Shown one piece after another: positions 3,592 to 39,552 of a DNA stretch of 41,805 nucleotides; positions within the stretch are counted from its first letter, which is position 1, and each line of letters opens with the position of its first letter. The notes beneath the pieces were generated by a model. That model did not search any database. It had not been told where the DNA came from and was given only the letters and a program-made list of their open reading frames with translations. The position numbers and the translations under genes were made by a program. Source of the DNA: Minisyncoccia bacterium (lineage in GTDB: Bacteria; Patescibacteriota; Minisyncoccia; UBA6257; 2-01-FULL-56-20); the NCBI GenBank assembly GCA_050015515.1, contig JBEKBG010000007.1, positions 1-41,805 on the forward strand, in the 5' to 3' direction.

Positions 3592-3743
3592 CTCTCGCGC
3601 CAGCATCGTATTCTGCGAGGGGCTCCGCAGGCGGTTCGGCATGGTCCGTTCGTTCTGACGAACGGCGAACCGCCGAGGACTGAGCGAGCCCATCGCTGGG
3701 TGGGCGAAGCGTACCCTCGCAGAATACGATGCTGGCGCGAGAG
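3592..3743. repeat. Fold-back element: perfect 30-bp inverted arms around a 92-nt branched core (GGGTAC family)
   Basis: 3592-3621 is the exact reverse complement of 3714-3743; interior has GCTC/GAGC, ccgttcgt/acgaacgg and gcccatc/ggtgggc stems. Confidence 0.9.
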
Positions 3744-7901: not shown

Positions 7902-8026
7902 TAGCAAAAACACAAAGGGATATTATTTTGAGGGCTCTCGGAGACGACGAAGGTCGCCGAGAGGGAGCGGCCGCGCAGCAGCGCGGAACGCGTACCTCAA
8001 GATAATATCCCTTTGTGTTTTTGCTA
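7902..8026. repeat. Fold-back element: 32-bp inverted arms (1 mismatch) around a branched core (GGGTAC family)
   Basis: 7902-7933 vs 7995-8026; right arm includes the ftsQ stop codon; core gctc...gagc, ccgcgc/gcgcgg, GCGTA. Confidence 0.9.
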
Positions 8027-8886: not shown

Positions 8887-8966
8887 CCGCGAAAAGGAAG
8901 GAGGATGCGCCTTCGCAGCATGGAAGATTAAATGCTGCGAAAGCGTATCCTCCTTCCTTTTCGCGG
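8887..8966. repeat. Long hairpin: 35-bp arms (2 mismatches), loop GGAAGATTAA
   Basis: 8887-8921 vs 8932-8966, just downstream of the serS stop. Confidence 0.9.
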
Positions 8967-8973
8967 CCGCATT

Positions 8974-10275
8974 CTATCCTATAACCTTTTTGCCTACGTA
9001 TTTTTGTAACACCTCCGGCACCATCACTTTTCCGTCCGCCGTTTGATAATTTTCAAGGATCGCGATGAACACGCGCGGACTCGGCAGCGCGGTGTTGTTC
9101 AACATGTACACATATTTCTTCTCGCCGGTCTTCGTGTCTACGTACTTCACGTTCAGGCGGCGCGACTGCCAGTCGAGGAAATTGCTCGCGGAGCCGGTCT
9201 CGGCCCAACGGTTCATACCCGGAAGCCACGCCTCGGTGTCATATTGCTTGTATTTGCCCGCGCCGAGATCGCCGGTGCAAATAAGCAGGCGCCGATAAGG
9301 CAAACCAAGCTCCTCGTGCATCTCGCCGGAGATCGCCACCATCTCGTCCTGAAGTTTATTTGCGGCCTCGATGTCCGCCTCCGCCAGCACCACCTGCTCC
9401 ACCTTCATGAACTCGTGCACGCGGTACATGCCCTTCACGTCTTTGCCGTAACTGCCGATCTCACTCCGATAGCATTGGCTGTAGCCCGCATTCTTTATCG
9501 GAAGCTGGTCCGCCTTCAAAACTTCATCCGAATAATATGCCAAGAGCGATGGCTCCGATGTTCCCACCAAAAACTTTTTCTCCACGCTTTTTTCGCCGCT
9601 TGCTTCCTTATCGCTCGTCGCGATCTCGTAGATTTCATCCACCTCCGGATCATAATCAGTCCCTTTGAAATATCCCGTACCGAACAACACAAATTCCTTA
9701 ACGAGCGTCGGCGGGATCATCGGCTTAAATCCCTTCTCCACCATCTTATTCACGGCATACATCATGATGCCCATCACGAGCTGCACGCCTTCGTTCTTTA
9801 AATAGTAACCGCGGAAGCCACCGATCTTTGTGCCTTTTTCAAAGTCGAGGATGTCGAGCGACGTACCGAGCGCCATATGATCCTTCGGCGTGAAGTCGAA
9901 TTTTTTCGGCTCCTTGTCCGACCCGCCGCCATGCGGGATCCAGCGGAACACTTCCTTGTTCTCACTTTCGTCCTTGCCTACCGGCACGTCCGGCGAAATA
10001 ATATTCGGCACACGCACCATCAGTTCACGAAATCGCTTCTCGAGCGGCTTCAATTTTTCTTCTTGCTCTTTGAATTGCTCTTTCAACTTGGCGCCCGCTT
10101 CGCGATCCTGCGTCTTTTTTTGCTCCGCGCGGAGGTTTTCCGACGTGGTCATCAACTCGCGCCGCTTCGCGTCCACATCCAAAAGCTCGTCAATGACCGC
10201 GGGGTCCAGGTTCTTTTTAACCGCCGCATCCTTTATGGCCGACGCATTCTCGCGGATGAACTTGATGTCGAGCAT
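8974..10275 (-). CDS. serS: Serine--tRNA ligase
   Basis: MLDIKFIREN start, N-terminal coiled arm, GTSE, YRSEIGSYG..GMYRVHEF.KVEQ, LNNTA..R class II motifs. Confidence 0.97.
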   Translation of the reverse strand: MLDIKFIRENASAIKDAAVKKNLDPAVIDELLDVDAKRRELMTTSENLRAEQKKTQDREAGAKLKEQFKEQEEKLKPLEKRFRELMVRVPNIISPDVPVGKDESENKEVFRWIPHGGGSDKEPKKFDFTPKDHMALGTSLDILDFEKGTKIGGFRGYYLKNEGVQLVMGIMMYAVNKMVEKGFKPMIPPTLVKEFVLFGTGYFKGTDYDPEVDEIYEIATSDKEASGEKSVEKKFLVGTSEPSLLAYYSDEVLKADQLPIKNAGYSQCYRSEIGSYGKDVKGMYRVHEFMKVEQVVLAEADIEAANKLQDEMVAISGEMHEELGLPYRRLLICTGDLGAGKYKQYDTEAWLPGMNRWAETGSASNFLDWQSRRLNVKYVDTKTGEKKYVYMLNNTALPSPRVFIAILENYQTADGKVMVPEVLQKYVGKKVIG

Positions 10276-10316
10276 ATGGCTATCATAGCGCAGGAGTTAG
10301 GATTTTTCCAACTATG

Positions 10317-10344
10317 AAAAAGGTCCGCTGTCGCCAGCGGACCC
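10317..10344 (-). terminator. Intrinsic terminator downstream of the GNAT gene
   Basis: On the minus strand ggtccgctg-loop-cagcggacc followed by a T run. Confidence 0.65.
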
Positions 10345-10358
10345 CTGAACCTGCGCGC

Positions 10359-10808
10359 TCATTGTCCTACCGGAAGCGACATGAGGTGATAATTTGAACC
10401 GAACACTTCCAAGGTTCTGAAGCCGAAGTAGTGGAGATAATAGTCAGGAAGGCTTTTCTTCGCGTCTGCGGTAAGAAGGATAAGATGGGCATTCTTCCTC
10501 CTGCCGATCTCTTTAATCAACCGCGCCACGAGTGCCTTGCCTATCCCTCTCCGTTGATGATGGGCAACAACGTTCACCCAAAAAATCTAGTAGATGTTGT
10601 AGTCCATCCACGACTGGATGTATCCGGCGAAGCCGATGATCTGGCCGCGCTCTTCCGCAACGAAATATACCGGCCGCGGGCCCCCACCCGTGGCGAACAT
10701 GTCCCCGATCTCTTTCCTCGCCGATAGTTCATATTTCCGTGAATAATTCTCTCCGACAATCGCGGCAGCCTTTCTCGCTTCACCTTTTCGTAATAGCCTG
10801 ATTCTCAT
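10359..10808 (-). pseudogene. GNAT family acetyltransferase interrupted by an in-frame TAG
   Basis: ORFs 10587..10808 and 10359..10577 are in the same frame: ...SWMDYNIY*IFWVNVVAHHQRRGIGKALV (acetyl-CoA motif A); GGAGG SD upstream. Confidence 0.8.
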
Positions 10809-11033
10809 GGCGTGCCTCCTAGGAAACTAGCTAGATTAAATCATAAATAGAGGAAGAAGTCGAGGGCGTCAAGTAGAGCGTGTTTGAATGGATTTGTACT
10901 GCCGATGTCGAATAAATGTTTTTGGAAAAAATAAACACTCTTGCGACCACAGGAATCCGGACAACGCATTGAATTCATCCTCTCACCGCATCCCCTTCAA
11001 AAATTCTGCTATTTGGCATAGAATGACTATATT

Positions 11034-12821
11034 ATGGCTCATAACGAATCGACCGGCGCTTCCGTGGAGCAGCTCGACCACATTCGCCACTCGCTGGCGC
11101 ACCTCCTTGCGGCGGCGGTGCTGAAAGAATTCCCCGACGCCAAGCTCGGCATCGGCCCGACGGTCGAAAACGGGTTCTACTACGACTTCCTACTCCCCCG
11201 TGCGATCGGGCCGGATGATTTGAAGACGCTTGAGAAGACGATGCGCGGCTTCGTCAATAAAAAACTGGCATTCACCGGACGCGAGGTCACGCCCGCGGAA
11301 GCGAAGAAACTTTTCGCCAAACAGCCTTTTAAGCTGGATTTAATAAAAGATTTTACGGGGGAGGGTGAGGTAGGCAAAGAGAAAGAGAAGTTGACCGTCT
11401 ACAAGACCGGCGATATCTTTATGGACCTTTGCCGCGGCGGCCACGTTGAAAACACCTCCGAAATCCCCGCTGACGGTTTCAAACTCGACAAGATCGCGGG
11501 CGCCTACTGGCGCGGCGACGAAAAAAACCAACAGCTCCAGCGCATCTACGGCCTGGCATTCGAAAGCAAGGAGAAATTAAAAGAGTATGAAACGATGATG
11601 GAAGAGGCGAAGAGACGGGATCACAAGATTCTCGGCCCGAAGCTGGATCTCTTTACCTTCTCCGACCTCGTTGGGCCGGGACTTCCCCTCTGGACACCGA
11701 AAGGAACGACGGTAAGAAATCTTCTTGATGATTTCGTGTGGGAGCTCCGCAAGAAGCGCGGCTATCTTCAGGTTGATATCCCCCACATCACAAAAAAGGA
11801 ACTTTATGAAAAAAGTGGGCACTGGGATAAGTTTAAAGATGAGCTTTTCAAAATCGAAACGCGTGAAGGGCATCTCTACGCGATGAAGCCGATGAACTGC
11901 CCGCACCACACGCAGATCTACGCGCGTAAGCAGTGGAGCTATCGCGAACTCCCCCAGCGATACGCGAACACCACCAAGGTGTACCGTGATGAACAATCGG
12001 GCGAGCTCGCCGGGCTTTCGCGCGTGCTCTCCATCACCCAGGATGATGCGCATGTGTTCTGCCGCACGTCACAAATAAAAGAGGAGATATTCAAGATCTG
12101 GGATATCGTCACCGAATTCTATGGGGTGTTTGGTTTTGAACTCTCCATCCGATTGTCGCTCCACGATCCTGAACATCCCGAAAAATATCTTGGCACGCCC
12201 GAGCTGTGGCGCAATGCAGAGGAACATCTCCGCCAACTCGTGGAAGAGCATGGCGCGAAGGCCGTCGAAGCGCCGGGAGAGGCGGCGCTCTATGGCCCGA
12301 AGATCGACTTCATGGGCAAAGACGCAATCGGCCGTTCGGTTCAGATCGCCACCATCCAGCTCGACATGAATCAGCCGGAACGGTTCGACCTTTTCTGTAT
12401 CAATGAGAACGGTGAGCGCGAACGTATTGTGATGATCCACGCAGCGATTATGGGATCAATCGAACGATTCCTCTCCGTCATCATCGAGCACTTCGCCGGC
12501 AAGTTCCCCGTCTGGCTCGCGCCGGTGCAGGCGACCATTCTCCCGGTCAGTGAAAAATTTGCAGATTACGGAAAGAAAACATACGACGCGCTCGTTACCG
12601 CGGACATCCGCGCGGAACTTTCCGAAGCCAACGAATCGCTCGGTAAACGCATCCGCGAGGCGGAAGTTATGAAAATCCCTTACGTGCTCGTCGTCGGCGA
12701 AAAAGAAGCTGGTGCGGGAACCGTGAACGTCCGCAGCCGGAATGGCGGCGAGGGCGAGGAAATGCCGCTTGAAAAATTCCTCGGAAAAATTTCCGAAGAC
12801 GTAAGCACTAAGCGGCTATAG
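11034..12821 (+). CDS. thrS: Threonine--tRNA ligase (lacks N-terminal TGS domain)
   Basis: RHSLAHLLA, DLCRGGH, RDHK, KPMNCPHH, HAAIMGSIERF motifs. Confidence 0.97.
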   Translation: MAHNESTGASVEQLDHIRHSLAHLLAAAVLKEFPDAKLGIGPTVENGFYYDFLLPRAIGPDDLKTLEKTMRGFVNKKLAFTGREVTPAEAKKLFAKQPFKLDLIKDFTGEGEVGKEKEKLTVYKTGDIFMDLCRGGHVENTSEIPADGFKLDKIAGAYWRGDEKNQQLQRIYGLAFESKEKLKEYETMMEEAKRRDHKILGPKLDLFTFSDLVGPGLPLWTPKGTTVRNLLDDFVWELRKKRGYLQVDIPHITKKELYEKSGHWDKFKDELFKIETREGHLYAMKPMNCPHHTQIYARKQWSYRELPQRYANTTKVYRDEQSGELAGLSRVLSITQDDAHVFCRTSQIKEEIFKIWDIVTEFYGVFGFELSIRLSLHDPEHPEKYLGTPELWRNAEEHLRQLVEEHGAKAVEAPGEAALYGPKIDFMGKDAIGRSVQIATIQLDMNQPERFDLFCINENGERERIVMIHAAIMGSIERFLSVIIEHFAGKFPVWLAPVQATILPVSEKFADYGKKTYDALVTADIRAELSEANESLGKRIREAEVMKIPYVLVVGEKEAGAGTVNVRSRNGGEGEEMPLEKFLGKISEDVSTKRL

Positions 12822-12859
12822 AAAAATGGCTCCAGAAACCATAAGATCTCTGAAGCCAT
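12822..12859 (-). terminator. Intrinsic terminator for the small minus-strand gene
   Basis: Minus strand: atggcttcagaga-loop-tttctggagccat then a T run (G-U pairs favour the minus strand). Confidence 0.6.
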
Positions 12860-12865
12860 GACCTC

Positions 12866-13069
12866 CTACGAAGCGGATGGTGTTTTCGCTTTCCGTGACG
12901 GTGAGGAAGAAAAAACGTACTCGAACCGCATCTGAACGACCTCTCTTCGCGCGGGAGGATGACTGAAAATGCGACGACGCACCATCCGCGCGAGCGCGAG
13001 AGCCGGCACAAAAATACAAGCGACTCCCAACACTATCAACGAGACTAAACTTAGACCTTCCCAATCCAT
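12866..13069 (-). CDS. Small single-pass membrane hypothetical protein (67 aa)
   Basis: GGAGGTGATC directly before the ATG, hydrophobic helix followed by a basic patch, terminator after the stop. Confidence 0.6.
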   Translation of the reverse strand: MDWEGLSLVSLIVLGVACIFVPALALARMVRRRIFSHPPARREVVQMRFEYVFSSSPSRKAKTPSAS

Positions 13070-13108
13070 GATCACCTCCCGGCGATCTTTCTGAAAACAT
13101 TATATAAT

Positions 13109-14023
13109 ATGGAAAAAAAAGGGTCAATCCCGCGCATCATCGCCGTCGTCGGCCCGACGGCCAGCGGAAAAACCGCGCTCGGGATCGCGCTCGCACGCGA
13201 ATTCGGCGGCGAGATCGTCTCCGCCGACTCCCGACAGATCTATCGCGGGATGGACATCGGCACCGCAAAGCCGACCGCAGCGGAGCGCCGCGCGATCCCC
13301 CATCATCTTATTGATATCAAAGATCCCGACGAGGACTACACCGTCGCGGACTACCAGCGCGATGCCATTGCCGCGATCAACAGCATCATCGCGCGGGGCA
13401 ACGTTCCCCTGCTCGTCGGCGGCACCGGGCTCTATGTGCGAGCGGTACTGGAGAATTTGGATATCCCGAAAACGGTTGCCAATCCGGAGCTGCGTGCGCA
13501 AATAGAAAAAGAGATCGCGGATGTCGGGCTGGAAGCCGTGTTCAAAAAATTAGTGGCTCTCGACCCGGAAGCTGCGTACGTGGTGGACCCGAAGAATCCC
13601 CGCCGCGTGGTGCGTGCGCTTGAGGTCGCGATCGCGACGGGTGTTCCGTTCACCGCGCAGCGTGCGAAGCATGCGCCGCTCTTTGATACGCTCGTGCTTG
13701 GGCTCAATCCTGCGCCGGAGATATTGCGCGAGCGCATCGACCGGCGCGTGGATGCGATGATGCGCGATGGACTCGTTCATGAAGTTTCAACGCTTATAAA
13801 AAAATACGGCCAAGCGCCGACCGCGTTCGACGCGATTGGCTATCGAGAAATTGTCGCTCACCTCGATGGCGCGCTATCGCTCGAGGACGCCACGACGGTG
13901 ATCAAAATGGACACATGGCACTACGCCAAGCGCCAGATGACGTGGTTCAAAAAGAGCAACAGAATCCACTGGATCGAAGGTATCAATGAATCGTTTCCTC
14001 TCGCACAAAATTTTTTACGCTAG
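13109..14023 (+). CDS. miaA: tRNA dimethylallyltransferase
   Basis: GPTASGKT, DSRQIYRGMDIGTAKP, VGGTGLY, AKRQMTWF. Confidence 0.97.
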   Translation: MEKKGSIPRIIAVVGPTASGKTALGIALAREFGGEIVSADSRQIYRGMDIGTAKPTAAERRAIPHHLIDIKDPDEDYTVADYQRDAIAAINSIIARGNVPLLVGGTGLYVRAVLENLDIPKTVANPELRAQIEKEIADVGLEAVFKKLVALDPEAAYVVDPKNPRRVVRALEVAIATGVPFTAQRAKHAPLFDTLVLGLNPAPEILRERIDRRVDAMMRDGLVHEVSTLIKKYGQAPTAFDAIGYREIVAHLDGALSLEDATTVIKMDTWHYAKRQMTWFKKSNRIHWIEGINESFPLAQNFLR

Positions 14024-15436
14024 ATTCTTCTCAAATATCTCCTTCAACATGTCCGGTCGCGCACGGCCTTTCAGCTTTGCCATCGCCTGACCGATCAAAA
14101 ACTGCAAGCTCGCCACTTTTCCTTTTTTATAATCCGCGACCGCAGCGTAATGCTCCGCGATGACCGCGAGCACGACCGCCTCCACTTCGTCGGTATTGGA
14201 GATGCCGATATTCTCACTCTGCATGATCTCCTTTGGATCGGCGCCCGTCTCAAACATCTTTGCAAGCATATCCTTCGCCTGACGGCTCGTGATCTTCTTC
14301 TGGTCGATAAGCACCGCAAGGCTTGCCAAATGATCAGGGCCAACTTTTAAATCTGCGAATGAAACGGCCGCCTGGTTCATCAATCCGCGCAGATCGCTCG
14401 ATAAATAGTTATAGACCGTGGTGATACTCCCGTCCGGGATCTCTTCGCGGAATTCGGACACCGCTTCTTCAAAATAATTCGCCGCAGCCAATTCCCCCGC
14501 GAGCGCATCGGCGGCTCGTTCATCCAAACCATATTCGTGCGCGAACCGCACGCGCTTTTGCGCGGGGAGTTCCGGAATGGAATCGCGTAACGCTTCAATA
14601 TCAAACACCGCCGTCTCGAACGGCGGAATGTCCGGCTCGGGGAAATAACGATAGTCCTGCGCCTCCTCCTTGGAACGCTGAGACACGCTCTTCTGTTTTG
14701 CATCATCCCAGCCGCGCGTCTCCTGGTGAACCGTCTCGCCTTTATCCAAAATTTCCGTCTGACGCTTGATCTCGTAATTGATCGCCTGAAACACCGAGTT
14801 GAACGAGTTCAGGTTCTTCACCTCCGCGCGCGTGCCGAGCATCGCCGGGTCCGACGAGATGGAAATATTCGCGTCGGCGCGCATCTGGCCACGCTCAAGA
14901 TCCGCGTCCGAAACGCCCAGGTAACGGAGTACCAACTGCAACTCTTTCATGAACGCCACCGCATCCTCGGCGCTGCGGATGTCCGGCTCGGTCACGAGCT
15001 CCATGAGCGGCACGCTGGCGCGATTGTAATCGACGAGCGTTCCGCCACCCGCATCGTCGTGCATCAGCTTGCCTGCATCTTCCTCCAAGTGAATGTGATT
15101 TATTTTTATGTCGCGCAACATTCCGCCGAGCACCAGCGGCTGGCCGGACTGAGAAATTTGATACGCCTTCGGAAGATCGGGATAAAAATAATTCTTGCGA
15201 TCGAAGCGCGAGCGCTCATTCGGCGTCCCGCCGGTCGCGAGGCCAACTTTCAAAACATATTCGATCGCCTGCTTATTCGGCACAGGTAACGTTCCCGGAT
15301 GGCCCATGCACACCGGACACACATTCACATTCGGATGCAACTCGCTCGGATCATTAAGAGAATCGCAGAACATTTTGGTACGCGTCGCGAGTTCCGCGTG
15401 CACCTCAAGGCCGATGGTTGGTTTATAGTCGCTCAT
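14015..15436 (-). CDS. gatB: Asp-tRNA(Asn)/Glu-tRNA(Gln) amidotransferase subunit B
   Basis: IGLEVH, RKNYFYPDLPK.YQISQ, HLEEDAGK, EVKNLNS, YRYFPEPD; start re-called at MSDYK. Confidence 0.97.
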   Translation of the reverse strand: MSDYKPTIGLEVHAELATRTKMFCDSLNDPSELHPNVNVCPVCMGHPGTLPVPNKQAIEYVLKVGLATGGTPNERSRFDRKNYFYPDLPKAYQISQSGQPLVLGGMLRDIKINHIHLEEDAGKLMHDDAGGGTLVDYNRASVPLMELVTEPDIRSAEDAVAFMKELQLVLRYLGVSDADLERGQMRADANISISSDPAMLGTRAEVKNLNSFNSVFQAINYEIKRQTEILDKGETVHQETRGWDDAKQKSVSQRSKEEAQDYRYFPEPDIPPFETAVFDIEALRDSIPELPAQKRVRFAHEYGLDERAADALAGELAAANYFEEAVSEFREEIPDGSITTVYNYLSSDLRGLMNQAAVSFADLKVGPDHLASLAVLIDQKKITSRQAKDMLAKMFETGADPKEIMQSENIGISNTDEVEAVVLAVIAEHYAAVADYKKGKVASLQFLIGQAMAKLKGRARPDMLKEIFEKNLA

Positions 15437-15509
15437 GGTATCGTGCGGTTGCTTTCCTATGATAGTAGCGGAAAATCCTGCATTCTTCAACTATGATATA
15501 CTACATAAA

Positions 15510-16052
15510 ATGATAATCACCATCGGAGGAAAGGTAGGCGCAGGAAAGTCCACGCTCGCAGCGATGCTATCGCATGAACTGAATTATGAACAGCTGTATG
15601 TGGGCGGCATTTTCCGCGAAATGGCTGCGGAGAAAAATCTCACCATCGAGCAGTTCTATACAGAGCTCAAAGACGATCCCGCAATCGAACAAACCGTGGA
15701 CCAGCGCCAGGCGACGCTCATGCGCGAGAAGGATAACCTTATCGTGAAGGGACGCATCGCGTGGTACTTCGCCAAAAGCAGCCCTTTTAAGATATTTAAC
15801 GTCTTTCTCGCTGTCGATCCCACAACGGGCGCGCGCCGTTCCGGCGAGCGAAAAGAGAACGCAGGACGATCGACCGATGAAATGATCATCGCTACCGCCG
15901 AGCGCGAAAAGATGGAGCACGAGCGATATTCCATGCTCTACGGAATCGAAAACCATCTCGACCCAGCCCACTACGATCTTGTCATTGATACGAGCATGCT
16001 CACTCCACAAGAAACATTCGACAAGGTGATGACGGCGGTGAAAGGACAATAA
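15510..16052 (+). CDS. cmk: Cytidylate kinase (short, archaeal-type family)
   Basis: IITIGGKVGAGKST, GGIFREMA, RY..LYGI, YDLVIDTS. Confidence 0.8.
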   Translation: MIITIGGKVGAGKSTLAAMLSHELNYEQLYVGGIFREMAAEKNLTIEQFYTELKDDPAIEQTVDQRQATLMREKDNLIVKGRIAWYFAKSSPFKIFNVFLAVDPTTGARRSGERKENAGRSTDEMIIATAEREKMEHERYSMLYGIENHLDPAHYDLVIDTSMLTPQETFDKVMTAVKGQ

Positions 16053-16146
16053 AAAAGACACACTGGGTTTCGCTCCGACGTAAGCGACCAACGGAAGTCC
16101 CGTGGAAAACGTCCACTCGCGAAACCCAGTGTGTCTTTTTTATTGT
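16046..16146. repeat. Fold-back element with perfect 28-bp arms between convergent cmk and rplK; may also act as a bidirectional terminator
   Basis: 16046-16073 is the reverse complement of 16119-16146; left arm contains the cmk stop codon; 45-nt interior has small stems. Confidence 0.85.
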
Positions 16147-16148
16147 TG

Positions 16149-16574
16149 CTAGCCCTCTATCGTGATTCCCATATTCTTCGCAGTCCCCGCAATGATCTTT
16201 TCCGCAGCTTCCAAGTTATCGGTGTTCAGGTCAGGGAGCTTACGCTCTGCAATTGCACGAACTTGTGCCTTCGTCACCTTGCCAACTTTGCCCGTAAGCG
16301 GGTTTGCGGCGCCCTTCTCGATGCCCGCGGCAGCCTTGAGCAATGCCGATGCCGGAGGGGTCTTCAAAACGAAGCTGAATGTGCGATCCTCGAAGATCGT
16401 GATCTCCGCCGGAACGACATCGCCCTTCATATCCTTCGTGGCCTCATTGAACTGCTTGCAGAACTCCTGGATGTTGATACCCTGCGGACCGAGCGCGGTA
16501 CCGACCGGAGGCGCAGGATTGGCCCCGCCGGCGGGAAGCTGAAGTTTTAGCACTGTTTTTACTTTCTTTGCCAT
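16149..16574 (-). CDS. rplK: 50S ribosomal protein L11
   Basis: [31 protein letters not shown]. Confidence 0.98.
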
Positions 16575-16629
16575 GAGTGAAATAGTACAGGATATTTTGA
16601 TTTAAATCAAGACATGACAGCCCTGCGGA

Positions 16630-17133
16630 CTAAAACGGAATATCCTCCGGCTTGATCTCGTCTTCTTCCAGATTGATTACCGGGATCTCATCCAACGACG
16701 GAACCGCATCCTTATCGCCGCCATCCTGCGCGGGTGATGAAACAGATGAGGCGCCAGAGCTCTTACTACCGCCCTGCCAGTTCCCGCCTCCCCCACCGGC
16801 GTTCGCCGCGCGAGGTCCAAGTTGCATGCGTTCGGCCATCACCTCCGTCGTCTTGCGCTGCTGGCCGTTCTTATCCGTCCAGCTACGCGTTTGCATCCGG
16901 CCCTCGATGAGCACCATCGCACCCTTTGTTAAGTATTGCCCGGCGATCTCCGCCGTCCTGCCCCAGAGCACCACGTTATGAAACTCCGTCTGCTCCTGCT
17001 TCTGCCCGGCCTTGTCCGTCCACACGCGATTGGTTGCCACGCCGATCGTCGTCACCGACTGCCCGCCCGGGGTTGACCGCACCTGCGGATCCGCCGTCAC
17101 CCGCCCCACCAAAATGACCTTATTTAAATCCAT
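16630..17133 (-). CDS. ssb: Single-stranded DNA-binding protein
   Basis: NKVILVGR, TEFHNVVLWG, Gly-rich linker, acidic DIPF tail. Confidence 0.98.
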   Translation of the reverse strand: MDLNKVILVGRVTADPQVRSTPGGQSVTTIGVATNRVWTDKAGQKQEQTEFHNVVLWGRTAEIAGQYLTKGAMVLIEGRMQTRSWTDKNGQQRKTTEVMAERMQLGPRAANAGGGGGNWQGGSKSSGASSVSSPAQDGGDKDAVPSLDEIPVINLEEDEIKPEDIPF

Positions 17134-17250
17134 GTTTTTATTATGGTGTTAGTTTATTTACCCCTATCTTAGCACATTATGCATTAAAACTATCTAAAAT
17201 AAAACCCTTACGTTATACCTTTGCTTAATAGGAATTTAATCGCCCATGTG

Positions 17251-18057
17251 CTACATTCCCCGTTTTATAATTAACGCTTCCATGTCGGGAGTCTCGGTGA
17301 ACTTCCCTGAAGGATGCGATTTGAGCAATGCCTTTCTAAAATCTTTATCAAATTTTGCAAGATTTTTGCCGAATAATCCGTTCGAGGCAAAAGACATTGA
17401 GTGATAGTATCCTAGCAAGCCATTCAGATCCCAAGTATTTTTTTGCTTTTGTCGATACACTTTAAATTTCTTAAAGGGCGACTCGCGAATGAAATCTTCA
17501 AAACGTTTCTCGGAAACTCTAAAATACCCTTTTCCTGCCCGGCGCTTTTCACCGAGGTATTTTACGATTATCTCCTTAGCGGTTTTCCGCCACTTATTCT
17601 GTGATGTCCAAGTGGTATCGCTCCGCAGATCTGAGGCTATAACAATGCCTCCGCCCGGCTCGATCATTTTATAAAGCGTCGCAAGCGTCTTCTTCTGATC
17701 CATCCAATGAAATGAGTGGCCCATAACGACCAAATGGAATTTTCCCATTTTCGCGTTTAGATTTTGCGAACTACCCTTCTTCCATATTACATTTTTCACC
17801 TTTGCCTTTCGTGCCGCCTTCTTTCCCTCATCAAGCATTTCCTGTTCAGGATCTACGGCAATAATTTCTTGAAAATACTTAGAGAGCGGAATGGCAAGTT
17901 GGCCGGTACCACAACCAAGATCAAGTAGCCGTCCGTTGCCGTCGAGGTTAAATTCTTTAGCGATATAATGAAAAAAAATTTTTGGATATCCCGGACGATA
18001 GCGGGCATAATACCACGCCGTACCCTTAAAAAGATCTTTCGATATATTTTTTGACAT
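17251..18057 (-). CDS. Class I SAM-dependent methyltransferase (AT-rich)
   Basis: YARYRPGYP, LLDLGCGTG, VDP...ML, SFHWMD, PGG. Confidence 0.9.
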   Translation of the reverse strand: MSKNISKDLFKGTAWYYARYRPGYPKIFFHYIAKEFNLDGNGRLLDLGCGTGQLAIPLSKYFQEIIAVDPEQEMLDEGKKAARKAKVKNVIWKKGSSQNLNAKMGKFHLVVMGHSFHWMDQKKTLATLYKMIEPGGGIVIASDLRSDTTWTSQNKWRKTAKEIIVKYLGEKRRAGKGYFRVSEKRFEDFIRESPFKKFKVYRQKQKNTWDLNGLLGYYHSMSFASNGLFGKNLAKFDKDFRKALLKSHPSGKFTETPDMEALIIKRGM

Positions 18058-18157
18058 TTATACGATGATTGTACCATTGATTCCGAATTGACATCCATAG
18101 AGACGCGCGTATTATGGATAATACCTGGCAAGGGGGCAACGATGCCTTTCACCGTGT

Positions 18158-18197
18158 AGTAAATAAAAAGACCCGATAGTGGGTCTTTTTATTTACT
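18158..18197 (-). terminator. Terminator hairpin after rpsF
   Basis: agtaaataaaaagaccc-gatagt-gggtctttttatttact, overlapping the rpsF stop. Confidence 0.75.
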
Positions 18198-18648
18198 GGA
18201 GGATCTCTTCTATTTTTTTCTCCAAAGCTTCGTTGCTTAAGGGCTTGGACGGCGCCAGACGCGGCGCTTCTGACGGTGCCGCAGGAGCGGTGTATGGAGT
18301 CGAGTTACGCGTGCGGCGCTCTTCGCGTGGCGGCATAGCGGACATTGCGGTGCGCTCGGCCGGAGCGGGCGATGCGATCACCATAAAGCGGAGTACGTCT
18401 GCGTGGGTATTCAGCTCGTGCTCGAGCGCTTTCATGTCATCACCGAACATCTTGAAGGTAAAGTACACAAATACCGCCTCGGTATGCTTCTTGATCTCGT
18501 ACGCCAGCTGAAGACGCTTTGCGCGCGGCTCGGAAAGGCCTTCGGCGCTATGCGTCCCGACCAGCTTGATCACGCCTGCCAGATCATCCTCGCTATTTAA
18601 AAGAAGCGCGAGCTCGTATTCTTTTTTGTCCTTTTCTTCGTTGGTCAT
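18193..18648 (-). CDS. rpsF: 30S ribosomal protein S6
   Basis: YEL.LLL, RLQLAYEIKK, VLRFMVI; upstream of ssb. Confidence 0.9.
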   Translation of the reverse strand: MTNEEKDKKEYELALLLNSEDDLAGVIKLVGTHSAEGLSEPRAKRLQLAYEIKKHTEAVFVYFTFKMFGDDMKALEHELNTHADVLRFMVIASPAPAERTAMSAMPPREERRTRNSTPYTAPAAPSEAPRLAPSKPLSNEALEKKIEEILQ

Positions 18649-18687
18649 TGGGTTGTATTGTAGCCGAGCCGGCCGGAAAAGTCCAGT

Positions 18688-25422
<6,735 letters not shown>

Positions 25423-25614
25423 AGTGTTTTAAAAAGTTTTACTGCGAAGCATTACCTTCGCGGCGGATCTTTGTATACGTCGATGAAATAAAATGTGGTC
25501 ATCATTTTTGGTTTCGGCCTTTATAGAATCGCACACACCAATCCCTACCCTCCCGTTCAGTCCCAACACGCAAAAAACGGCTCCGCCCTTCCTTGTTTCG
25601 AGGGATACCGTTTC

Positions 25615-26628
25615 TTAATTGCTTTCTAAGTATTTAACTCTATTTTGGTTCTGTTCGTCAAGGGTCTTGGCGAATATTGTTTTTCCCGTCGCGGGATCGC
25701 TCAAATAGTAAAAGTAGGGGGAGTTTTGGGGATGGAGCGCAGCGGTAATGGCGGAAGTGCCTGGGTTGCCGATGGGATCTGGTGGCAAACCCTTATACAG
25801 GTAGGTATTGTAGGGCGAATCAATCTTGAAGTCAAGCGCCGAGAGAGAGCAGACCTGGGCAGTTGAGGTGGACGCCGCCAATAGCTTGGCGTAACAGACC
25901 GTCGCGTCGATGTCCAGAGGCATCCCGTCGGCCAGGCGCTTAAGGATGATTCCAGCGACGACCTCCTGATCCTGTTGGTCCGGCACCTCTTTTTCTACGA
26001 TCGAGGCAATGATAAGGGTGCTCGTCTCGTCCGTAAAGGTTGACGTGTTCCCCGCCGGGGCGGCGACAAAGAGCGGACCGGCCTTTGCATTAAAATCACT
26101 CGTCATTTCCTGGATCACGTCTTCCACGCTGTCGTTCGTATAAAACTGATAGGTGTCGGGAAATAGATGCCCTTCCAAATTTTGCGTCCTTGCGGCGGCG
26201 ATGAGCGCGCCGGGGCGAATCACGAGCGCGTTGCTCAGCATTCGATCGATGTTGAAAATGTTCGACCCCTCCGGGATAGTGACCGTCGCCTTCCCTGCTC
26301 TGCTGCCGGAAAGCATCGCCACGATCTGCGCCACATCCATCGACGGGCTTAACCGGTACAATCCCGGCTTGAGCGTAAACGCGCGACCATCCACCAGGGA
26401 AAAAATATCGAACGCGAACGGGCTACGAATAAGATGTGCGGCACGCAAATTCTGTGCGACCTCGCGAAAGCCATCGCCGGGGTTAACCTGGAATACGATC
26501 GGCGGTGTGGCGGCACTCCCCGCTGCGACATCCACCGGATCAAGACTGAAGAAAAACCACCCCGCCACGATAATGACGAGCGCAATAACTATTCCTACGA
26601 TAATATTTTTTTTCGTTAATATCCTCAC
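25615..26628 (-). CDS. mltG: Endolytic transglycosylase MltG
   Basis: N-terminal TM, TIPEG, LEGHLFPDTY, ASIVEKE, SPYNTY..GLPP.PI.NPG. Confidence 0.93.
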   Translation of the reverse strand: MRILTKKNIIVGIVIALVIIVAGWFFFSLDPVDVAAGSAATPPIVFQVNPGDGFREVAQNLRAAHLIRSPFAFDIFSLVDGRAFTLKPGLYRLSPSMDVAQIVAMLSGSRAGKATVTIPEGSNIFNIDRMLSNALVIRPGALIAAARTQNLEGHLFPDTYQFYTNDSVEDVIQEMTSDFNAKAGPLFVAAPAGNTSTFTDETSTLIIASIVEKEVPDQQDQEVVAGIILKRLADGMPLDIDATVCYAKLLAASTSTAQVCSLSALDFKIDSPYNTYLYKGLPPDPIGNPGTSAITAALHPQNSPYFYYLSDPATGKTIFAKTLDEQNQNRVKYLESN

Positions 26629-26685
26629 TTCTTTTTTCTACTCTTTTCTTTTTCCTCTTTTCTTTTAATCTCTCCATTATTGATG

Positions 26686-26769
26686 TCCGCAAGCGCTCAT
26701 AGCCGCATACTTTTTGGAGCAATTAATCTTCCTTGCTCCAAAAAGTATGCGGCTATGAGCGCTTGCGGA
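26686..26769. repeat. Long hairpin: perfect 37-bp arms, loop GGAAGATTAA (minus strand)
   Basis: 26686-26722 is the reverse complement of 26733-26769; right arm covers the last codons and stop of rodA. Confidence 0.92.
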
Positions 26770-27799
26770 TGGAATTAACAAGGGAGAGCGTAAAGAAATT
26801 TGCGAGCATACTCGATCCGCCGTAGCTAAAGAATGGGAACGTAACCCCAATGACCGGCATAAGGCCGGTAGTGGAGCCGGTGTTCAAGAGAAATTGCACG
26901 CCGAGCATGATCGCCGCGCCGAGACAGATGAACTTCTCAAAATTTTCATCGGCCAACAGCCCGATTCGCAAAATCTGGAAAATAAGGAACAAGAACGCCG
27001 CCACGATCACGATACCTCCAACAACGCCCCATTCCTCGATGAACGCGGCGAAGATAAAATCTTCCGACGGTTCGGAGAGGAACCCGAGCTGAGCCTGCGT
27101 CCCCTGACCATATCCCTGCCCCCAAAATCCCGCGGAGCCGATGGCGATCTTTGATTGTATCGCACTGTAATTGATGCCGAGCGCGTTCTGATCGGGATAT
27201 AAAAACCCGACGATGCGGGCGCGATGATACGGCTTCAGCACATATGTCCAGATCAGTCCGCCGGCGAGCAGAATAACGGCGATCGCAACGACGACGCGGC
27301 GCCACGGCAACCCAAGTAACAATAAAAATCCGAACCAGATGCCGAAGAAGATCACCGCGGAGCCGAGATCCGGAAGCTTTACCGAGATCGCCGCAGGGAG
27401 AACAAAGAATATAAAAGAGGTAAAAATGTTCTTCCAGCGCGCGATCGCCATATGCCGCCGGCTGAAATAGTTGGCGTAAAGCAAAATGAGCGCGACCTTC
27501 ATAAGCTCCACCGGCTGGAGGCTGAACGGTCCGAGCACCAGCCAACTGTGCGTGTTGCGCACGAGCGGCGACGCAAGCAGCGCAAGCACCATGAGCGCGA
27601 GCGCAAGCCCGTATAATCCCCAGATCACCCACTGCGAATTGAATATCGTGCGAACATCCACAAAGAACGAACCGACCACGAGCGCGATGCCAAGAACGAT
27701 CCATATTATTTGGAAGACAAAAAAATGAAACGAGATCGCCGAGAGAATGACCAAGCTCGCAGCGAGTAAAATTCCGACCGGGATGAATAATGCCAACAT
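26753..27799 (-). CDS. rodA: SEDS family peptidoglycan polymerase (RodA/FtsW)
   Basis: LQPVELMK, PDLGSA, QSKIAIGSAG..GQG, DFIFA..EEWG, G.TFPFFSYGGSS. Confidence 0.88.
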   Translation of the reverse strand: MLALFIPVGILLAASLVILSAISFHFFVFQIIWIVLGIALVVGSFFVDVRTIFNSQWVIWGLYGLALALMVLALLASPLVRNTHSWLVLGPFSLQPVELMKVALILLYANYFSRRHMAIARWKNIFTSFIFFVLPAAISVKLPDLGSAVIFFGIWFGFLLLLGLPWRRVVVAIAVILLAGGLIWTYVLKPYHRARIVGFLYPDQNALGINYSAIQSKIAIGSAGFWGQGYGQGTQAQLGFLSEPSEDFIFAAFIEEWGVVGGIVIVAAFLFLIFQILRIGLLADENFEKFICLGAAIMLGVQFLLNTGSTTGLMPVIGVTFPFFSYGGSSMLANFFTLSLVNSIRKRS

Positions 27800-27801
27800 A
27801 G

Positions 27802-28542
27802 CTAGCGAAGCGCGTACACCAATATTTGATTCACCGCCGGATTGATATTCGGCTCCGCGGGATAGAGCACGGAAAAATTATTGGTGGCGCCCGCGATAAC
27901 GTTATCCAATTCTGTCTGCGAAGCGCCAATGATATTTCCGCCGGCATCTTTAAAGAGCGCCATCACAATGACCCGCGCGTACGAAGCGACGCCCGTGTTC
28001 ACGAGCTGGCCGCCGACGGAAACGGTCGTGGAAGCAACGCTCGTCTGAACATTTTGCAGCGCGAACCCGCCCGGCGCGATCCCGGGATCGGTGCCGATCG
28101 TTCCGCTCGCAAGCCATTCCACGCCAGTGACCACAAGCGCCATGTGATCATACGCCCCCGGGATGGTCTCGTTGGGGAGAAAAATATATTTATTCTGACT
28201 CGGATAGATGAACGTCTGCCCGGGAATCGATTGGAGAACGGTGCCCGACGCATCATCAAAATCCAACTCATAATTGACGAGCGGCGCGCCATAATCGGCA
28301 TCGGCGTTTTGCAACTGTGCCAAAAAAGTATTGTGCCCCGGACTCGTGACGAACGTCGAGACGATGGACGCTGCAATCGGCGCGGTACTCGTGGGCGCGC
28401 ACATGCCCGGTGCACATGGCACCGGCGTGGAAGCGATGATGGACGGCAGCACGAACACAAAATAGATGCCAGCACAAACGACCAGCACGATCAAAAGATA
28501 AAACGTGCCATAGATGAGCTGCTTCGCGCGCCGGGTGGACAT
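27802..28542 (-). CDS. Membrane-anchored hypothetical protein with Ig-like (FxLYD-like) domains
   Basis: N-terminal TM; G.LVNTG...ALFKDAGGNIIGAS pattern; TATAAT 6 nt before the ATG. Confidence 0.7.
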   Translation of the reverse strand: MSTRRAKQLIYGTFYLLIVLVVCAGIYFVFVLPSIIASTPVPCAPGMCAPTSTAPIAASIVSTFVTSPGHNTFLAQLQNADADYGAPLVNYELDFDDASGTVLQSIPGQTFIYPSQNKYIFLPNETIPGAYDHMALVVTGVEWLASGTIGTDPGIAPGGFALQNVQTSVASTTVSVGGQLVNTGVASYARVIVMALFKDAGGNIIGASQTELDNVIAGATNNFSVLYPAEPNINPAVNQILVYALR

Positions 28543-28579
28543 GGATTCATTATAGATGATGTGGCGGACGTTGTCAGGA

Positions 28580-28608
28580 TTGACGCCAACACCAATGGGC
28601 TATATATT
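28580..28608 (+). promoter_or_regulatory. Sigma70-type promoter
   Basis: TTGACG-17nt-TATATT upstream of the GAGAGGT SD of the 28626 ORF. Confidence 0.6.
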
Positions 28609-28625
28609 CTTCGGAGAGGTGCCCC

Positions 28626-29021
28626 ATGTTGAAATTAGAGAATTTTTTAGCCCCTTCCAATGTCATTGGCCAAGGGTGCGACGTCCCGAGACTGACCGAA
28701 CTCCTTACTTTTGCTATCGGAAATAAGCCCGGATTACATTTCAATTACATGAGGCCGTTCCCGGAGACGGATCGCTCGGTCCGCGTGCTGGGGAAAAAGC
28801 CATTCGAAGGAGGCGTTTCCTTTCCTCGGCCAATGAGCCCGGAAGAAATGGCTCTCAGCCTCATGAAATATTCCGACTCGCGTCAGCCAGTAGACCAGGC
28901 AAGATATTCTACCCAGCCAAGCTCTTCCGCCATAAAGGGATGGATGATCAGCAGATCGGCCGATGACCTCGATGAGCAAGGAGACCCTCTCGTCGCCGCC
29001 TATGCCACATGGATCGATTGA
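28626..29021 (+). CDS. Hypothetical protein (131 aa)
   Basis: Has its own promoter, SD and downstream terminator; no recognisable motif. Confidence 0.65.
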   Translation: MLKLENFLAPSNVIGQGCDVPRLTELLTFAIGNKPGLHFNYMRPFPETDRSVRVLGKKPFEGGVSFPRPMSPEEMALSLMKYSDSRQPVDQARYSTQPSSSAIKGWMISRSADDLDEQGDPLVAAYATWID

Positions 29022-29027
29022 CGAACA

Positions 29028-29064
29028 AGGGGCGAAACGCATATGCGTTTCGCCCCTCTTTTTT
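29028..29064 (+). terminator. Palindromic terminator between the 28626 ORF and the 5S rRNA
   Basis: aggggcgaaacgcatatgcgtttcgcccct followed by ctttttt. Confidence 0.7.
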
Positions 29065-29076
29065 GAACGGCACTTT

Positions 29077-29193
29077 GATGTCGGCACATCCTACTTTCCC
29101 CGCCCGAGGGCAAGTATCATGGGATAGGGACGCTTTCACTTCTCTGTTCGGAATGGGAAGAGGTGGGACACGCCCGAATGAAGCACCGACATC
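29077..29193 (-). rRNA. rrf: 5S ribosomal RNA
   Basis: Minus strand ccacctcttcccattccgaacagagaagtgaa...gggaaagtagg, terminal helix gatgtcgg/ccgacatc; downstream of the 23S. Confidence 0.93.
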
Positions 29194-29205
29194 AAAAAGC
29201 CGTTC

Positions 29206-29270
29206 GCATGTGGGTGAGTGTTCTAAAAAACTAGAAGATTAATAGTTTTTTAGAACACTCACCCACATGC
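29206..29270. repeat. Long hairpin: perfect 28-bp arms, loop GAAGATTAA
   Basis: 29206-29233 vs 29243-29270 in the 23S-5S spacer. Confidence 0.92.
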
Positions 29271-29316
29271 TCACCGCCTAGTGATTAATTGATTCTTTAT
29301 TGTAGATAAAGAATGA

Positions 29317-29383
29317 GATAGTGCGCTGCATGCTTTTGAAAACTATTAATCTGCTAGTTTTCAAAAGCATGCAGCGCACTATC
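29317..29383. repeat. Long hairpin: perfect 29-bp arms, loop GCAGATTAA (minus strand)
   Basis: 29317-29345 vs 29355-29383 in the 23S-5S spacer. Confidence 0.92.
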
Positions 29384-29515
29384 GAATGCAAGTCAGCATT
29401 GGGATGGTTGGCGGGATTATTAGTACGTCTTGGCTAAAAACATTGCTGTCCTTACACCGAACGCCTATCAACGTCATAGTCTATGACGAAATCACGCATA
29501 CCTAATCTTGGGGTG

Positions 29516-29548
<33 letters not shown>

Positions 29549-29690
29549 CTTCCATACATAGCTACCCGGCAATTCACTTGGTAGCAAAGCCGGTAGACCA
29601 GAGGTATGTTCAACCCAGTCCTCTCGTACTAAGGTCAACTCCCCTCAAGTATTAAACGCCTGCAGCAGATAGAGACCGACCTGTCTCACG

Positions 29691-30045
29691 CAACTTCTTT
29701 TTCATCGCCATTACTGGCGGGTTGGACTATACCACCATCTCAATTGAGATGATCGACGTGTTAGCCCGGCATGATTGCCGGACTCCAGTTCTTTCGAACC
29801 AAGTCTCTAAGGGGTCAATGCACAAAAATAAATTTTGCGCACGACTTCCCTCGGTATTATCCTCACGGTCCAGGTCTAGACCACATAAGGACTTCACCGA
29901 TATGAGTCGATTTTCACGCTTTACGATTCGTCGGACGAATGACGAACTTTAATGCAAAGCTTCACTCCTTGGTATCGCTACCAAGGGCCGCCGTTTCTTC
30001 TTTTAACAGTTTCTTTCGTTACCTTCGATTGGGTTATCTACGTTG
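29691..30045 (-). ncRNA. Group I intron at 23S position 2593 (E. coli numbering), no ORF, 355 nt
   Basis: Interrupts GACCGU|CGUGAGA; exon ends in U, intron ends in G; core-like cttagagact and gtatagtcc. Confidence 0.9.
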
Positions 30046-31166: not shown

Positions 31167-31180
31167 ACCTTAGAACGATT

Positions 31181-33341: not shown

Positions 33342-33378
<37 letters not shown>

Positions 33379-33951: not shown

Positions 33952-34032
33952 GTGATGTGCACGAATTAGTTTTTTTGACGGAAATGCCAGGTAGGAACCT
34001 GACCGTCAAAAAAATTAATTCGCGCACATCAC
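33952..34032. repeat. Fold-back element: 25-bp arms around the conserved 31-nt core
   Basis: Arms 33952-33976/34008-34032 (2 mismatches); core gacggaaatgccaggtaggaacctgaccgtc. Confidence 0.9.
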
Positions 34033-34989: not shown

Positions 34990-35070
34990 GAAACAAAACC
35001 ATCCTCTCGTTTTTGACGGTCACGTTCCTACGTGGCATTTCCGTCAAAAACGAGAGGATGGTTTTGTTTC
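34990..35070. repeat. Fold-back element: perfect 25-bp arms around the same 31-nt core in the opposite orientation
   Basis: Arms 34990-35014/35046-35070; core reverse complement gacggaaatgccacgtaggaacgtgaccgtc. Confidence 0.92.
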
Positions 35071-39439: not shown

Positions 39440-39552
39440 AGCTTATCCAACATGCCCCGAAAGGGTACTTCGGAGCCGCGCAGGCGGCGAGAACTAAGGC
39501 GCGCGTTCAGTAGAACGCGACGCCGTCCCTTTCGGGGCATGTTGGATAAGCT
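39440..39552. repeat. Fold-back element: perfect 26-bp arms around a branched core (GGGTAC family)
   Basis: 39440-39465 vs 39527-39552, abutting the tRNA 3' end; core starts GGG|TAC then the gccgc/gcggc hairpin. Confidence 0.88.

Follow-up and report, generated by a model that had tools for sequence, protein, structure and literature searches.

Long intergenic palindromes with conserved, exchangeable tips at gene 3' ends: putative terminator hairpins in a Minisyncoccia genome

In a stretch of 41,805 nt from a Minisyncoccia bacterium (GenBank assembly GCA_050015515.1, contig JBEKBG010000007.1, positions 1 to 41,805), hereafter the window, four long hairpins carry loops that share the motif AGATTAA. 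Here, we report that these four hairpins are members of a larger superfamily of long palindromes. On balance, they appear to be intrinsic-terminator hairpins with replaceable palindromic tip modules, shaped by palindrome dynamics at the DNA level. The hairpins display a layered anatomy, lie at the 3' ends of protein, tRNA and rRNA genes, turn over among relatives, and exhibit tip replacement, loop inversion, mirrored changes in the two arms and inverted copies of gene ends, while their function as terminators is predicted from the sequence. The window is the entire 41.8-kb contig C7 of a draft genome of 774,379 bp in 23 contigs, with a GC content of about 0.53 and a completeness of 98%. It was compared with 22 other species of the genus (23 genomes in all), mainly with G014, a single-contig chromosome that is about 75-86% identical in genes. 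The metagenome data were Logan contigs of peat and permafrost samples, plus contigs of an RNA run with a small share of matching words.

The four hairpins were all recovered with the positions, stems and loops given in the original prediction. The first (8887-8921 + 8932-8966), of the family termed A below, has a 35-bp stem with two mismatches (94% complementary) and the loop GGAAGATTAA on the + strand; it is located 8 nt past the stop of serS and 18 nt ahead of the start of an ftsQ-like gene. The second (26686-26722 + 26733-26769), also of family A, has a 37-bp stem that is 100% complementary, with the loop GGAAGATTAA read on the - strand. Its right arm overlaps the final 16 nt of ftsW/rodA, and the distal part of its left arm repeats this gene end in inverted form. 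The other two hairpins, assigned to A', are located in the 23S-5S spacer. One of them (29206..29270, +) has a perfect 28-bp stem, extendable to 29191-29285 at 86%, and the loop GAAGATTAA, and lies 16 nt from the 5S 5' end; the other (29317-29345 + 29355-29383, -) has a 29-bp stem that is 100% complementary and the loop GCAGATTAA, lies 20 nt past the 23S 3' end, and has an identical 20-nt proximal stem segment in common with the copy at C9:17452. As originally described, the two spacer copies share AAAACTAG(A/C)AGATTAATAGTTTT, and each of the four hairpins is located downstream of a minus-strand gene (serS in one case, ftsW/rodA in another and 23S rRNA in the remaining two), with two loops reading + and two reading -.

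Such hairpins are abundant on the other contigs as well. A tolerant inverted-repeat scan with loops of 3-32 nt identified 84 hairpins genome-wide against 0 in a first-order Markov shuffle, and with loops of up to 110 nt the count rose to 112, again against 0 in the shuffled genome. About one intergenic region of seven contains a near-perfect palindrome of 60-180 nt. The motif AGATTAA by itself is not over-represented, with 88 occurrences on both strands for a Markov expectation of 85.8 (sd 11.1), but 26 of the 88 occurrences are inside hairpin loops, though loops make up 1399 of 774,379 nt. The enrichment of AGATTAA hairpins beyond the window, on which the original prediction had staked itself, was observed elsewhere in the genome and also in no fewer than five other species of the genus. 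For the 13 copies with a ten-nt loop, standard pairs account for 99.2% of 364 pair cells, and G-U occurs in only one of them, the stems being Watson-Crick perfect; 25 of the 28 pairs vary on both sides, and neither 500 shuffles (0/500) nor any slid register gave a comparable result. The stems of the family hairpins are 19-43 bp long (median 31), and 51 of 66 are perfect. Mismatches, present at 22 of 2049 stem positions, are G:T (12), A:C (7) and G:A (3), and therefore wobble-compatible mismatches are not clearly favoured.

Nearly all of the long hairpins sort into about eight loop families, A to H, plus others. Family A is the largest (26 copies), with the loop G(G)AAGATTAA or GCAGATTAA, and also has a form with a 17-19-nt loop, in which an inner stem of 3 bp closes the same core. 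Family H (23 copies) has a Y-shaped tip of 61-73 nt with two inner mini-hairpins, and family B (17 copies) has the loop AAATGCCACGTAGGAACGTGA with a 5-bp inner mini-stem. Families C, D, G, F and E contain 10, 7, 6, 4 and 3 copies, respectively, besides 11 hairpins with other loop types and five plain short-loop terminators. Conservation decreases from the tip outward: the information content is about 2 bits per position in the loop, 1-2 bits in the first ~10-11 bp of the stem and only about 0-1 bit farther out. The conserved proximal stem consists of TTTTGAGGCAT before the loop and ATGCCTCAAAA after it in family A, and of TTTTTGACGG and CCGTCAAAAA in family B; among the 77 copies of B in the metagenomes, 72 distinct 5' arms were counted. 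The inner mini-stem of B shows compensatory changes from CACGT/ACGTG to CAGGT/ACCTG, CACAT/ATGTG or CACCT/AGGTG, and the two inner mini-stems of H covary likewise, from CCGGCC/GGCCGG to CCAGCC/GGCTGG or CCGGTC/GACCGG. The whole structure may be described as three layers: an apical module, formed by the conserved loop with about 10 bp on each side; a terminator-like stem, in which an A-run, a GC-rich core and a T-run follow one another; and, often, a distal extension that pairs the native 3' end of a neighbouring gene with its inverted copy.

The location of the hairpins suggests what they may do. At least one gene 3' end faces the hairpin in 97 of the 112 cases, and the distance from the stop codon to the start of the hairpin has a median of -2 nt, falling between -45 and +30 nt in 73 of the 97. 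The gene contexts are tandem (64), convergent (33), divergent (12) and contig-edge (3). Ten hairpins begin less than 30 nt, mostly 0-8 nt, past the point where a tRNA gene or 23S ends (3'), so that 9 of the 46 tRNAs are followed by one, and hairpins adjoin the inverted repeat flanking 23S at both its ends. Like intrinsic terminators, the hairpins are thus placed directly downstream of genes. A T-run was counted in the distal 3' arm or in the flank of 59 of the 112, compared with 12% of random windows. The hairpins are predicted to act as Rho-independent terminators, for the most part bidirectional, and as 3'-end hairpins of mRNAs, tRNAs and the rRNA operon. No match to Rho_RNA_bind, SbcD_C or SbcC_Walker_B was found in this genome. 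Without Rho, intrinsic terminators would be needed. SbcCD cuts DNA hairpins, and its apparent absence could allow long palindromes to be tolerated.

The comparison of orthologous sites indicates that the hairpins come and go. Colinear anchors in G014 are available for 54 of the 84 hairpin sites, and 17 sites were aligned; in 12 of these, the anchors are no more than 54 nt apart in G014, compared with 87-152 nt in the present genome. For example, the site of the 8887 hairpin is empty in G009, G014 and G005 and contains a family F hairpin in G003, whereas five species have a short stretch of GC-rich sequence there and G001 an insert of 347 nt. Five of six relatives aligned at the 26686 site (G003, G006, G005, G001 and G014) lack the hairpin, and the end of ftsW corresponding to 26753-26769 is unchanged in them; in G013, the same loop is present, with G013's own version of the ftsW gene end mirrored. 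The site of the double hairpin C10:16644/16736 is empty in all seven relatives (7/7). At some sites, a plain terminator of the relative corresponds to the outer stem of the hairpin, with the module placed in its apex, as for C2:35196 (compared with position 204493 of G014); likewise, the outer stem of C10:8330 is the plain terminator stem of G013, G005 and G014. That every hairpin is a module inserted in an existing terminator was considered and rejected as a general rule, since several sites are wholly empty in relatives.

Where the hairpin persists, its tip is often exchanged. Fifteen family-type sites have a hairpin in both this genome and G014, and, with the families read by eye, four of them have the same family in both, eight have different families and three have a plain terminator in G014. 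At C9:17452, the basal stem is shared and carries an A' tip in the present genome and an E/D-like tip in G014. At C10:14092, the shared basal stem carries a B tip here, an A-like tip in G014 and an E-like tip in G009, with no hairpin in G003. The three positions of the rRNA operon, occupied here by B, A' and A', are occupied in G014 by H, H and a third type, the H-type modules being at the positions of the 29206 and 33952 hairpins. H-type tips of about 60-75 nt were found in relatives at sites, the rRNA spacer among them, that have B or A in this genome (G003:C7, G014:C1:245498-245654 and G014:C1:704600-705050).

The arms of the hairpins evolve in concert. Across 24 orthologous pairs of B hairpins, 91 differences are mirrored on both arms and 17 affect one arm only. 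The closest pair shows one-arm changes only, which is what recent mutations not yet corrected should look like. A decayed, imperfect copy is present in G009. Inverted copies of gene ends were recognised in five cases, namely ftsW, sites #37 and #34, C10:14092 and C10:16736. In addition, loops can be flipped on a persisting stem: at site #29, the G-family loop is reverse-complemented on the same stem between the present genome and G014, and one stem bears the tetraloop TTCG in G013 but CGAA in G005. Among 52 metagenome B sites, 14 are represented by at least two loci, and three of these 14 show both orientations relative to conserved flanks, with flanks 93-100% identical in one of the flips. 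The perfection and growth of the palindromes could be produced by intrastrand (fold-back) template switching. A new mutation would arise on one arm and then be copied onto the other; a nascent strand that has copied the palindrome would fold back and extend on itself, adding the reverse complement of the flank on the far side, so that palindromes would extend outward by copying the flank. Loops invert, and apical modules are gained, lost and replaced at hairpin tips.

Could the variable middle stems instead be guide- or spacer-like copies captured from elsewhere, with the loop and the proximal stem as a constant handle? Three stems do match 19-21 nt inside genes of this genome (19/19 in yceG, 20/21 and 19/20), and 10 matches of at least 30 bits were obtained compared with 0-2 in reversed or shuffled controls. 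However, such a match occurs in only 3 of 84 stems and in none of 26 stems of G014, orthologous stems drift via mirrored point changes, the adjacent gene end accounts for many distal stems, and no associated effector gene was seen. We therefore regard this idea as very improbable. The three gene segments are located at 25710-25728 of the window (yceG), C9:18603-18623 and C1:26423-26442, and match the middle stems of the hairpins at C1:51117, C2:17866 and C6:8620; they could be captured filler DNA, targets or chance.

The loops show no constant relation to the direction of transcription or replication. As the original prediction had stated for the four hairpins, loop orientation is generally independent of the transcribed strand, the numbers of sense and antisense loops in tandem context being 9 and 5 for family A and 7 and 6 for family H; the corresponding numbers are 1 and 4 for C, 1 and 3 for D and 9 and 1 for B. 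With replichores inferred via synteny with G014 and the GC skew of G014, the comparison of orientation with replichore that had been proposed gave 10 leading and 6 lagging loops for A, and 10 and 4 for B, without significant bias. The original prediction went on to suggest recognition at the DNA level, like that of the nonanucleotide loops nicked by HUH endonucleases. Its first part agrees with the behaviour of the hairpins, which is that of DNA palindromes and not of strand-specific RNA motifs, whereas the analogy with HUH systems gained no support.

In its full form, this explanation holds that the loops are recognition or nicking sites of an HUH (Y1/Y2/Rep) enzyme on single-stranded DNA hairpins or cruciforms, as in repetitive extragenic palindromes (REPs) with their REP-associated tyrosine transposases (RAYTs), in IS200/IS605 insertion sequences (IS) and in rolling-circle origins. 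HUH systems, such as the nonanucleotide origins of rolling-circle replication and the subterminal hairpins of IS200/IS605, have a conserved loop on a variable stem and recognise the hairpin at the DNA level. The hairpins resemble them in that the conserved part is the loop and the stems are unrelated in sequence, the orientation of A and H is independent of transcription, and a Y1 transposase does exist in the genus (nine copies in G009), inserting right after terminator T-runs. However, about 26-110 chromosomal copies are present here, not one origin or two IS ends, no significant replichore bias is seen, and at least eight unrelated loop families would demand several specificities. The HUH, Rep or TnpA gene that was to be looked for did not appear, either: Pfam-type profiles of Y1_Tnp (PF01797), Rep_trans, TnpB, IS110 and DDE_Tnp_1 had no match in this genome, rve and others not being searched. 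Y2_Tnp had no match here, but that search is uninformative because the control was silent in all 14 control genomes. The census of HUH enzymes was limited to Y1_Tnp, Y2_Tnp and Rep_trans, none of which was found, with relaxases, Rep_1, Rep_2 and phage GPA not searched. Furthermore, Y1_Tnp occurs in only 1 of the 23 genus genomes, compared with 9 for the B loop, 14 for the H core and 12 for the A model, and the IS of G009 is dissimilar to the modules. Taken together, a dedicated HUH enzyme is neither needed nor, among the families searched, found, and we consider this explanation distinctly unlikely.

The element of G009 (loci L295-L300) is IS200-like, about 610 nt long, and encodes a Y1 transposase of 177 aa. 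At four of the five left junctions that were read, the element follows immediately on the T-run of a hairpin of the plain terminator type, and the fifth has no evident hairpin. The element and the hairpin modules share 19 9-mers, with about 28 expected, and show no similarity. As for other enzymes, one tyrosine and two large serine recombinases are present in the genome under study, without visible link to the hairpins. The sole RVT_1 match is the reverse transcriptase (L100:12553-13566) of a diversity-generating retroelement at C1:88000-93000 (locus L100:11031-14275), whose template repeat is about 145 nt long (L100:12028-12172) and whose variable repeats (11583-11727 and 14131-14275, 83-86% identity) lie at the 3' ends of two paralogous target genes.

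The distribution of the families was examined in relatives and metagenomes. With no more than two mismatches, the B loop was found in 8 of the 22 other species, that is, in 9 of 23 genus genomes; outside the genus, 18 genomes were searched and none has it. For family A, a covariance model has matches in 11 of the 22 other genus genomes (12 of 23 with the present one), scoring at least 62 bits in G013, G009, G006, G014 and G005, with by far the most matches in the present genome; under stricter filters, none of 150 other genomes of the order has a match. The H core is present in 14 of 23 genus genomes. As judged from these searches, the superfamily, which comprises at least 110 long near-perfect intergenic palindromes, appears to be genus-specific. 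The copy numbers of the families vary strongly among species, and G014, for example, has many G but few A or B hairpins. Viral contigs gave 0 matches to the B loop and 0 to the H core. The only match to the A core in viral contigs is an imperfect hairpin in AT-rich sequence (L301:233-275, IMGVR_UViG_3300013233_000439), which could be from a phage of candidate-phyla-radiation (CPR) bacteria, from a CPR contig filed wrongly, or due to chance. Full-text literature searches, supplements not covered, yielded no account of hairpins of this kind in Patescibacteria, CPR or Parcubacteria.

The same distribution bears on a technical explanation. Fold-back chimeras in amplified DNA can yield long perfect palindromes, and the hairpins might thus have arisen as chimeric fold-back joins during amplification or assembly. 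However, 23 independent genomes, single-contig chromosomes included, have the same loop families at conserved positions between genes, 75 metagenome loci have them as well, hairpins are bridged by contigs of other samples, and the flanks are colinear with relatives. Consequently, an artefact is hardly credible.

Several points weigh against the view of the hairpins as terminators shaped by template switching. Only 59 of the 112 have a T-run where a terminator needs one, and many of these runs are inside the extended stem. The gene calls, from which the distances to stop codons derive, are crude open reading frame (ORF) calls, and the absence of SbcCD and Rho is based on single Pfam domains in a draft that is 98% complete. 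Template switching is known here only via its expected products. A terminator role leaves unaccounted for why loops of 10-61 nt are nearly invariant amid drifting stems, and the model supplies no route by which a module would reach a new hairpin tip. Finally, B is the only family with biased orientation, the 9 sense loops against 1 antisense giving p=0.02; in the metagenomes (77 copies), 34 B loci are sense-only and 11 antisense-only (p=0.0008, the loci not being independent).

For module transfer and loop invariance, one candidate is ectopic template switching or gene conversion among hairpins with T-run/A-run proximal stems in common, and another is a hairpin-specific protein that has escaped recognition. 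For loop invariance, selection on RNA is a further candidate, favoured for B and perhaps for H, in view of the covarying mini-stems and the sense bias of B, which together hint that these tips are read as RNA or by a protein. Extended to all families, this would mean that the loops are functional RNA motifs, bound or processed by a protein or RNase, on hairpins of 3' untranslated regions, tRNA trailers and rRNA spacers, whose stems need only pair. Consistent with it, besides the orientation and covariation of B and the covariation of H, are the location of the hairpins, immediately behind stop codons and tRNA 3' ends and flanking the 23S processing stem, and the presence of RNase III in the genome. 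However, A and H occur about equally in both orientations, and half of their transcripts would therefore carry the complement of the motif; unrelated families substitute for one another at a single site, which is empty in many relatives. Moreover, the stems avoid G-U (a single pair cell, as noted above), and one arm may be coding sequence. A search of the window against Rfam at gathering score matched only rRNA and tRNA families, and with permissive E-values only sub-threshold look-alikes of microRNA precursors were obtained, on A, B and H hairpins. We regard an RNA motif as the general explanation as possible, though not probable. The RNase III domain is at C3:74378-74773, in an open frame of 340 aa; the RNase III of model bacteria has roughly 226 aa.

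A bolder proposal is that the apical modules represent mobile DNA of a novel type, confined to hairpin tips, which would spread without an enzyme or via an undiscovered nuclease or recombinase specific to tips. Enzyme-free spread would proceed by template switching between hairpins with common T-run/A-run proximal stems, with the loops as nucleation sites of fold-back, and the host palindrome would then grow by copying the neighbouring gene end. We consider it rather unlikely. If the tips were indeed self-spreading or recognised by a protein, they would constitute a new class of mobile elements that targets the apexes of hairpins; otherwise, they would still be a well-defined natural set of long terminators with interchangeable caps.

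How do the hairpins compare with known systems? The closest kinds are REPs and bacterial interspersed mosaic elements (BIMEs), SPRITE-like terminator repeats, and MITEs (miniature transposable elements with inverted repeats), and what is unusual here is an exchangeable conserved tip on a site-specific, self-correcting and growing stem. REPs have a conserved stem sequence with a 5' tetranucleotide, and the Y1 RAYT gene is present. Here, in contrast, the loop and about 10 bp are conserved, the stems of 20-45 bp are unrelated, and the genome contains no Y1 gene, so that neither a conserved palindromic stem nor a RAYT gene (0 matches to PF01797) links the hairpins to REPs. In the cited passages, REPs and BIMEs are described as many short extragenic palindromes at gene 3' ends, which fold into hairpins, influence termination and the stability of mRNA, and are used as targets for insertion (PMC3184786; PMC1525189). 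The likeness to the REP/BIME systems with RAYT of Enterobacteria, Pseudomonas and Stenotrophomonas, as far as these passages describe them, is therefore the abundance of extragenic palindromes at gene 3' ends. One of the same sources, in the part cited, also treats terminator-like repeats such as SPRITE, and MITEs, as small non-coding elements that resemble terminators or serve as such, with filled and empty sites between relatives (PMC3184786), and to that extent the hairpins resemble them, too. MITEs, however, are conserved over the whole length, with terminal inverted repeats that match an IS and direct target duplications, whereas the hairpins have site-specific distal arms, an inverted duplication of the flank and tip exchange on a persisting base. 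Conserved termini were not found, nor was an autonomous IS of the families searched (DDE_Tnp_1, IS110, TnpB and Y1) that could share them, and the alignments of filled and empty sites show inverted, not direct, flank copies in five cases, the other junctions being too diverged to read.

Hairpins with conserved parts are also known from integrons and from the replication termini of linear genomes. Integron attC sites have conserved boxes at the hairpin base, a variable centre and a neighbouring IntI integrase. Here, the conservation is at the tip of the hairpin and not at its base, and the hairpins are dispersed and not in cassette arrays, so that they are not attC sites in these respects; the genome has a single tyrosine recombinase. 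The flip/flop of parvovirus termini and the inversion of spacers between inverted repeats likewise place the unpaired tip of a palindrome in two orientations. The likeness to parvovirus is this presence of the tip in both orientations; its palindromes are replication termini of a linear genome, whereas those described here are internal chromosomal hairpins, with the flips seen between strains. To our knowledge, template-switch mutation is known at single loci and not as the shaper of a genome-wide terminator family with conserved tips. In the parts of the studies cited, template switching at quasipalindromes perfects imperfect inverted repeats and makes short inverted copies nearby (PMC7202029; bioRxiv 10.1101/2021.11.26.470150), which, as far as described there, fits the changes mirrored between the arms and the gene ends copied in inverted form.

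The genomes of CPR bacteria are minimal, and knowledge of how transcription ends in them, and of how these genomes change, is scarce. The comparison of species offers an unusually clear natural record of arm correction, outward growth into coding ends, tip inversion and tip exchange. It is also a warning for annotation, since the hairpins remodel gene 3' ends and protein C-termini in these genomes.

Counting the four AGATTAA hairpins, the window contains eleven hairpins. Two belong to family B. That at 33952..34032 (+) has a 28-bp stem and the 21-nt loop AAATGCCAGGTAGGAACCTGA, a variant with a compensatory inner mini-stem that was also found in G003 and G013; it is located 20 nt upstream of the 5' end of 23S and is bridged unchanged by a contig from sequencing run X3. 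That at 34990..35070 (-) has a perfect 30-bp stem and the loop AAATGCCACGTAGGAACGTGA read on the - strand, and is located 6 nt past the tRNA-Pro 3' end and 18 nt past the stop of a NUDIX gene, in convergent context. Two others belong to family H: 7902..8026 (-), with a 31-bp stem and a Y-shaped apical module of 61 nt, is placed between convergent PMT-like and ftsQ-like genes, and 39440..39552 (-), with a perfect 26-bp stem and a 61-nt apical module, abuts the tRNA-Met 3' end (39553). The remaining three were assigned no strand. The hairpin at 3592..3743, of a further family, ends 3 nt from the stop of a DUF4012 gene and has a perfect 30-bp stem with a 92-nt apical insert resembling those at C6:16066 and C8:29402. 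The hairpin at 16046..16146 has a perfect 28-bp stem with a G-like loop of 45 nt and overlaps the stop of the cytidylate-kinase gene. Finally, 18158..18197 is a plain bidirectional terminator without apical module (A-run, GACCC, 6-nt loop, GGGTC, T-run), which is conserved in G014.

Among the housekeeping genes of the window are lepA, serS, thrS, miaA, gatB, cmk, ssb, yceG, ftsW/rodA, pheS and the gene for the CCA-adding enzyme, and its RNA genes are those of 23S, 5S, tRNA-Pro and tRNA-Met. The 16S rRNA gene was not found in the window, and none is present beside the 23S-5S pair. The rpoB and rpoC genes are fused into a single ORF of 2244 aa (18688-25422, -). The 23S rRNA gene (29403-33932, -) is 4530 nt long, compared with a model of 2925 positions, and carries insertions, one of which contains a LAGLIDADG ORF (31309-31836). 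In contigs of an RNA run, position 30716 is linked to 31921 within this gene at a depth of about 1116, with 12 other letters in between and 1204 nt skipped, and the same joint is present in DNA contigs from three runs at low depth. The insert may therefore be spliced out, or it may be missing from related rRNAs. A near-palindrome at 35272-35322, with 25-nt arms that are 88% complementary and 1 nt between them, overlaps the start of an ORF encoding a ribbon-helix-helix (CopG-family) protein (35267-35635), and may be a candidate operator.

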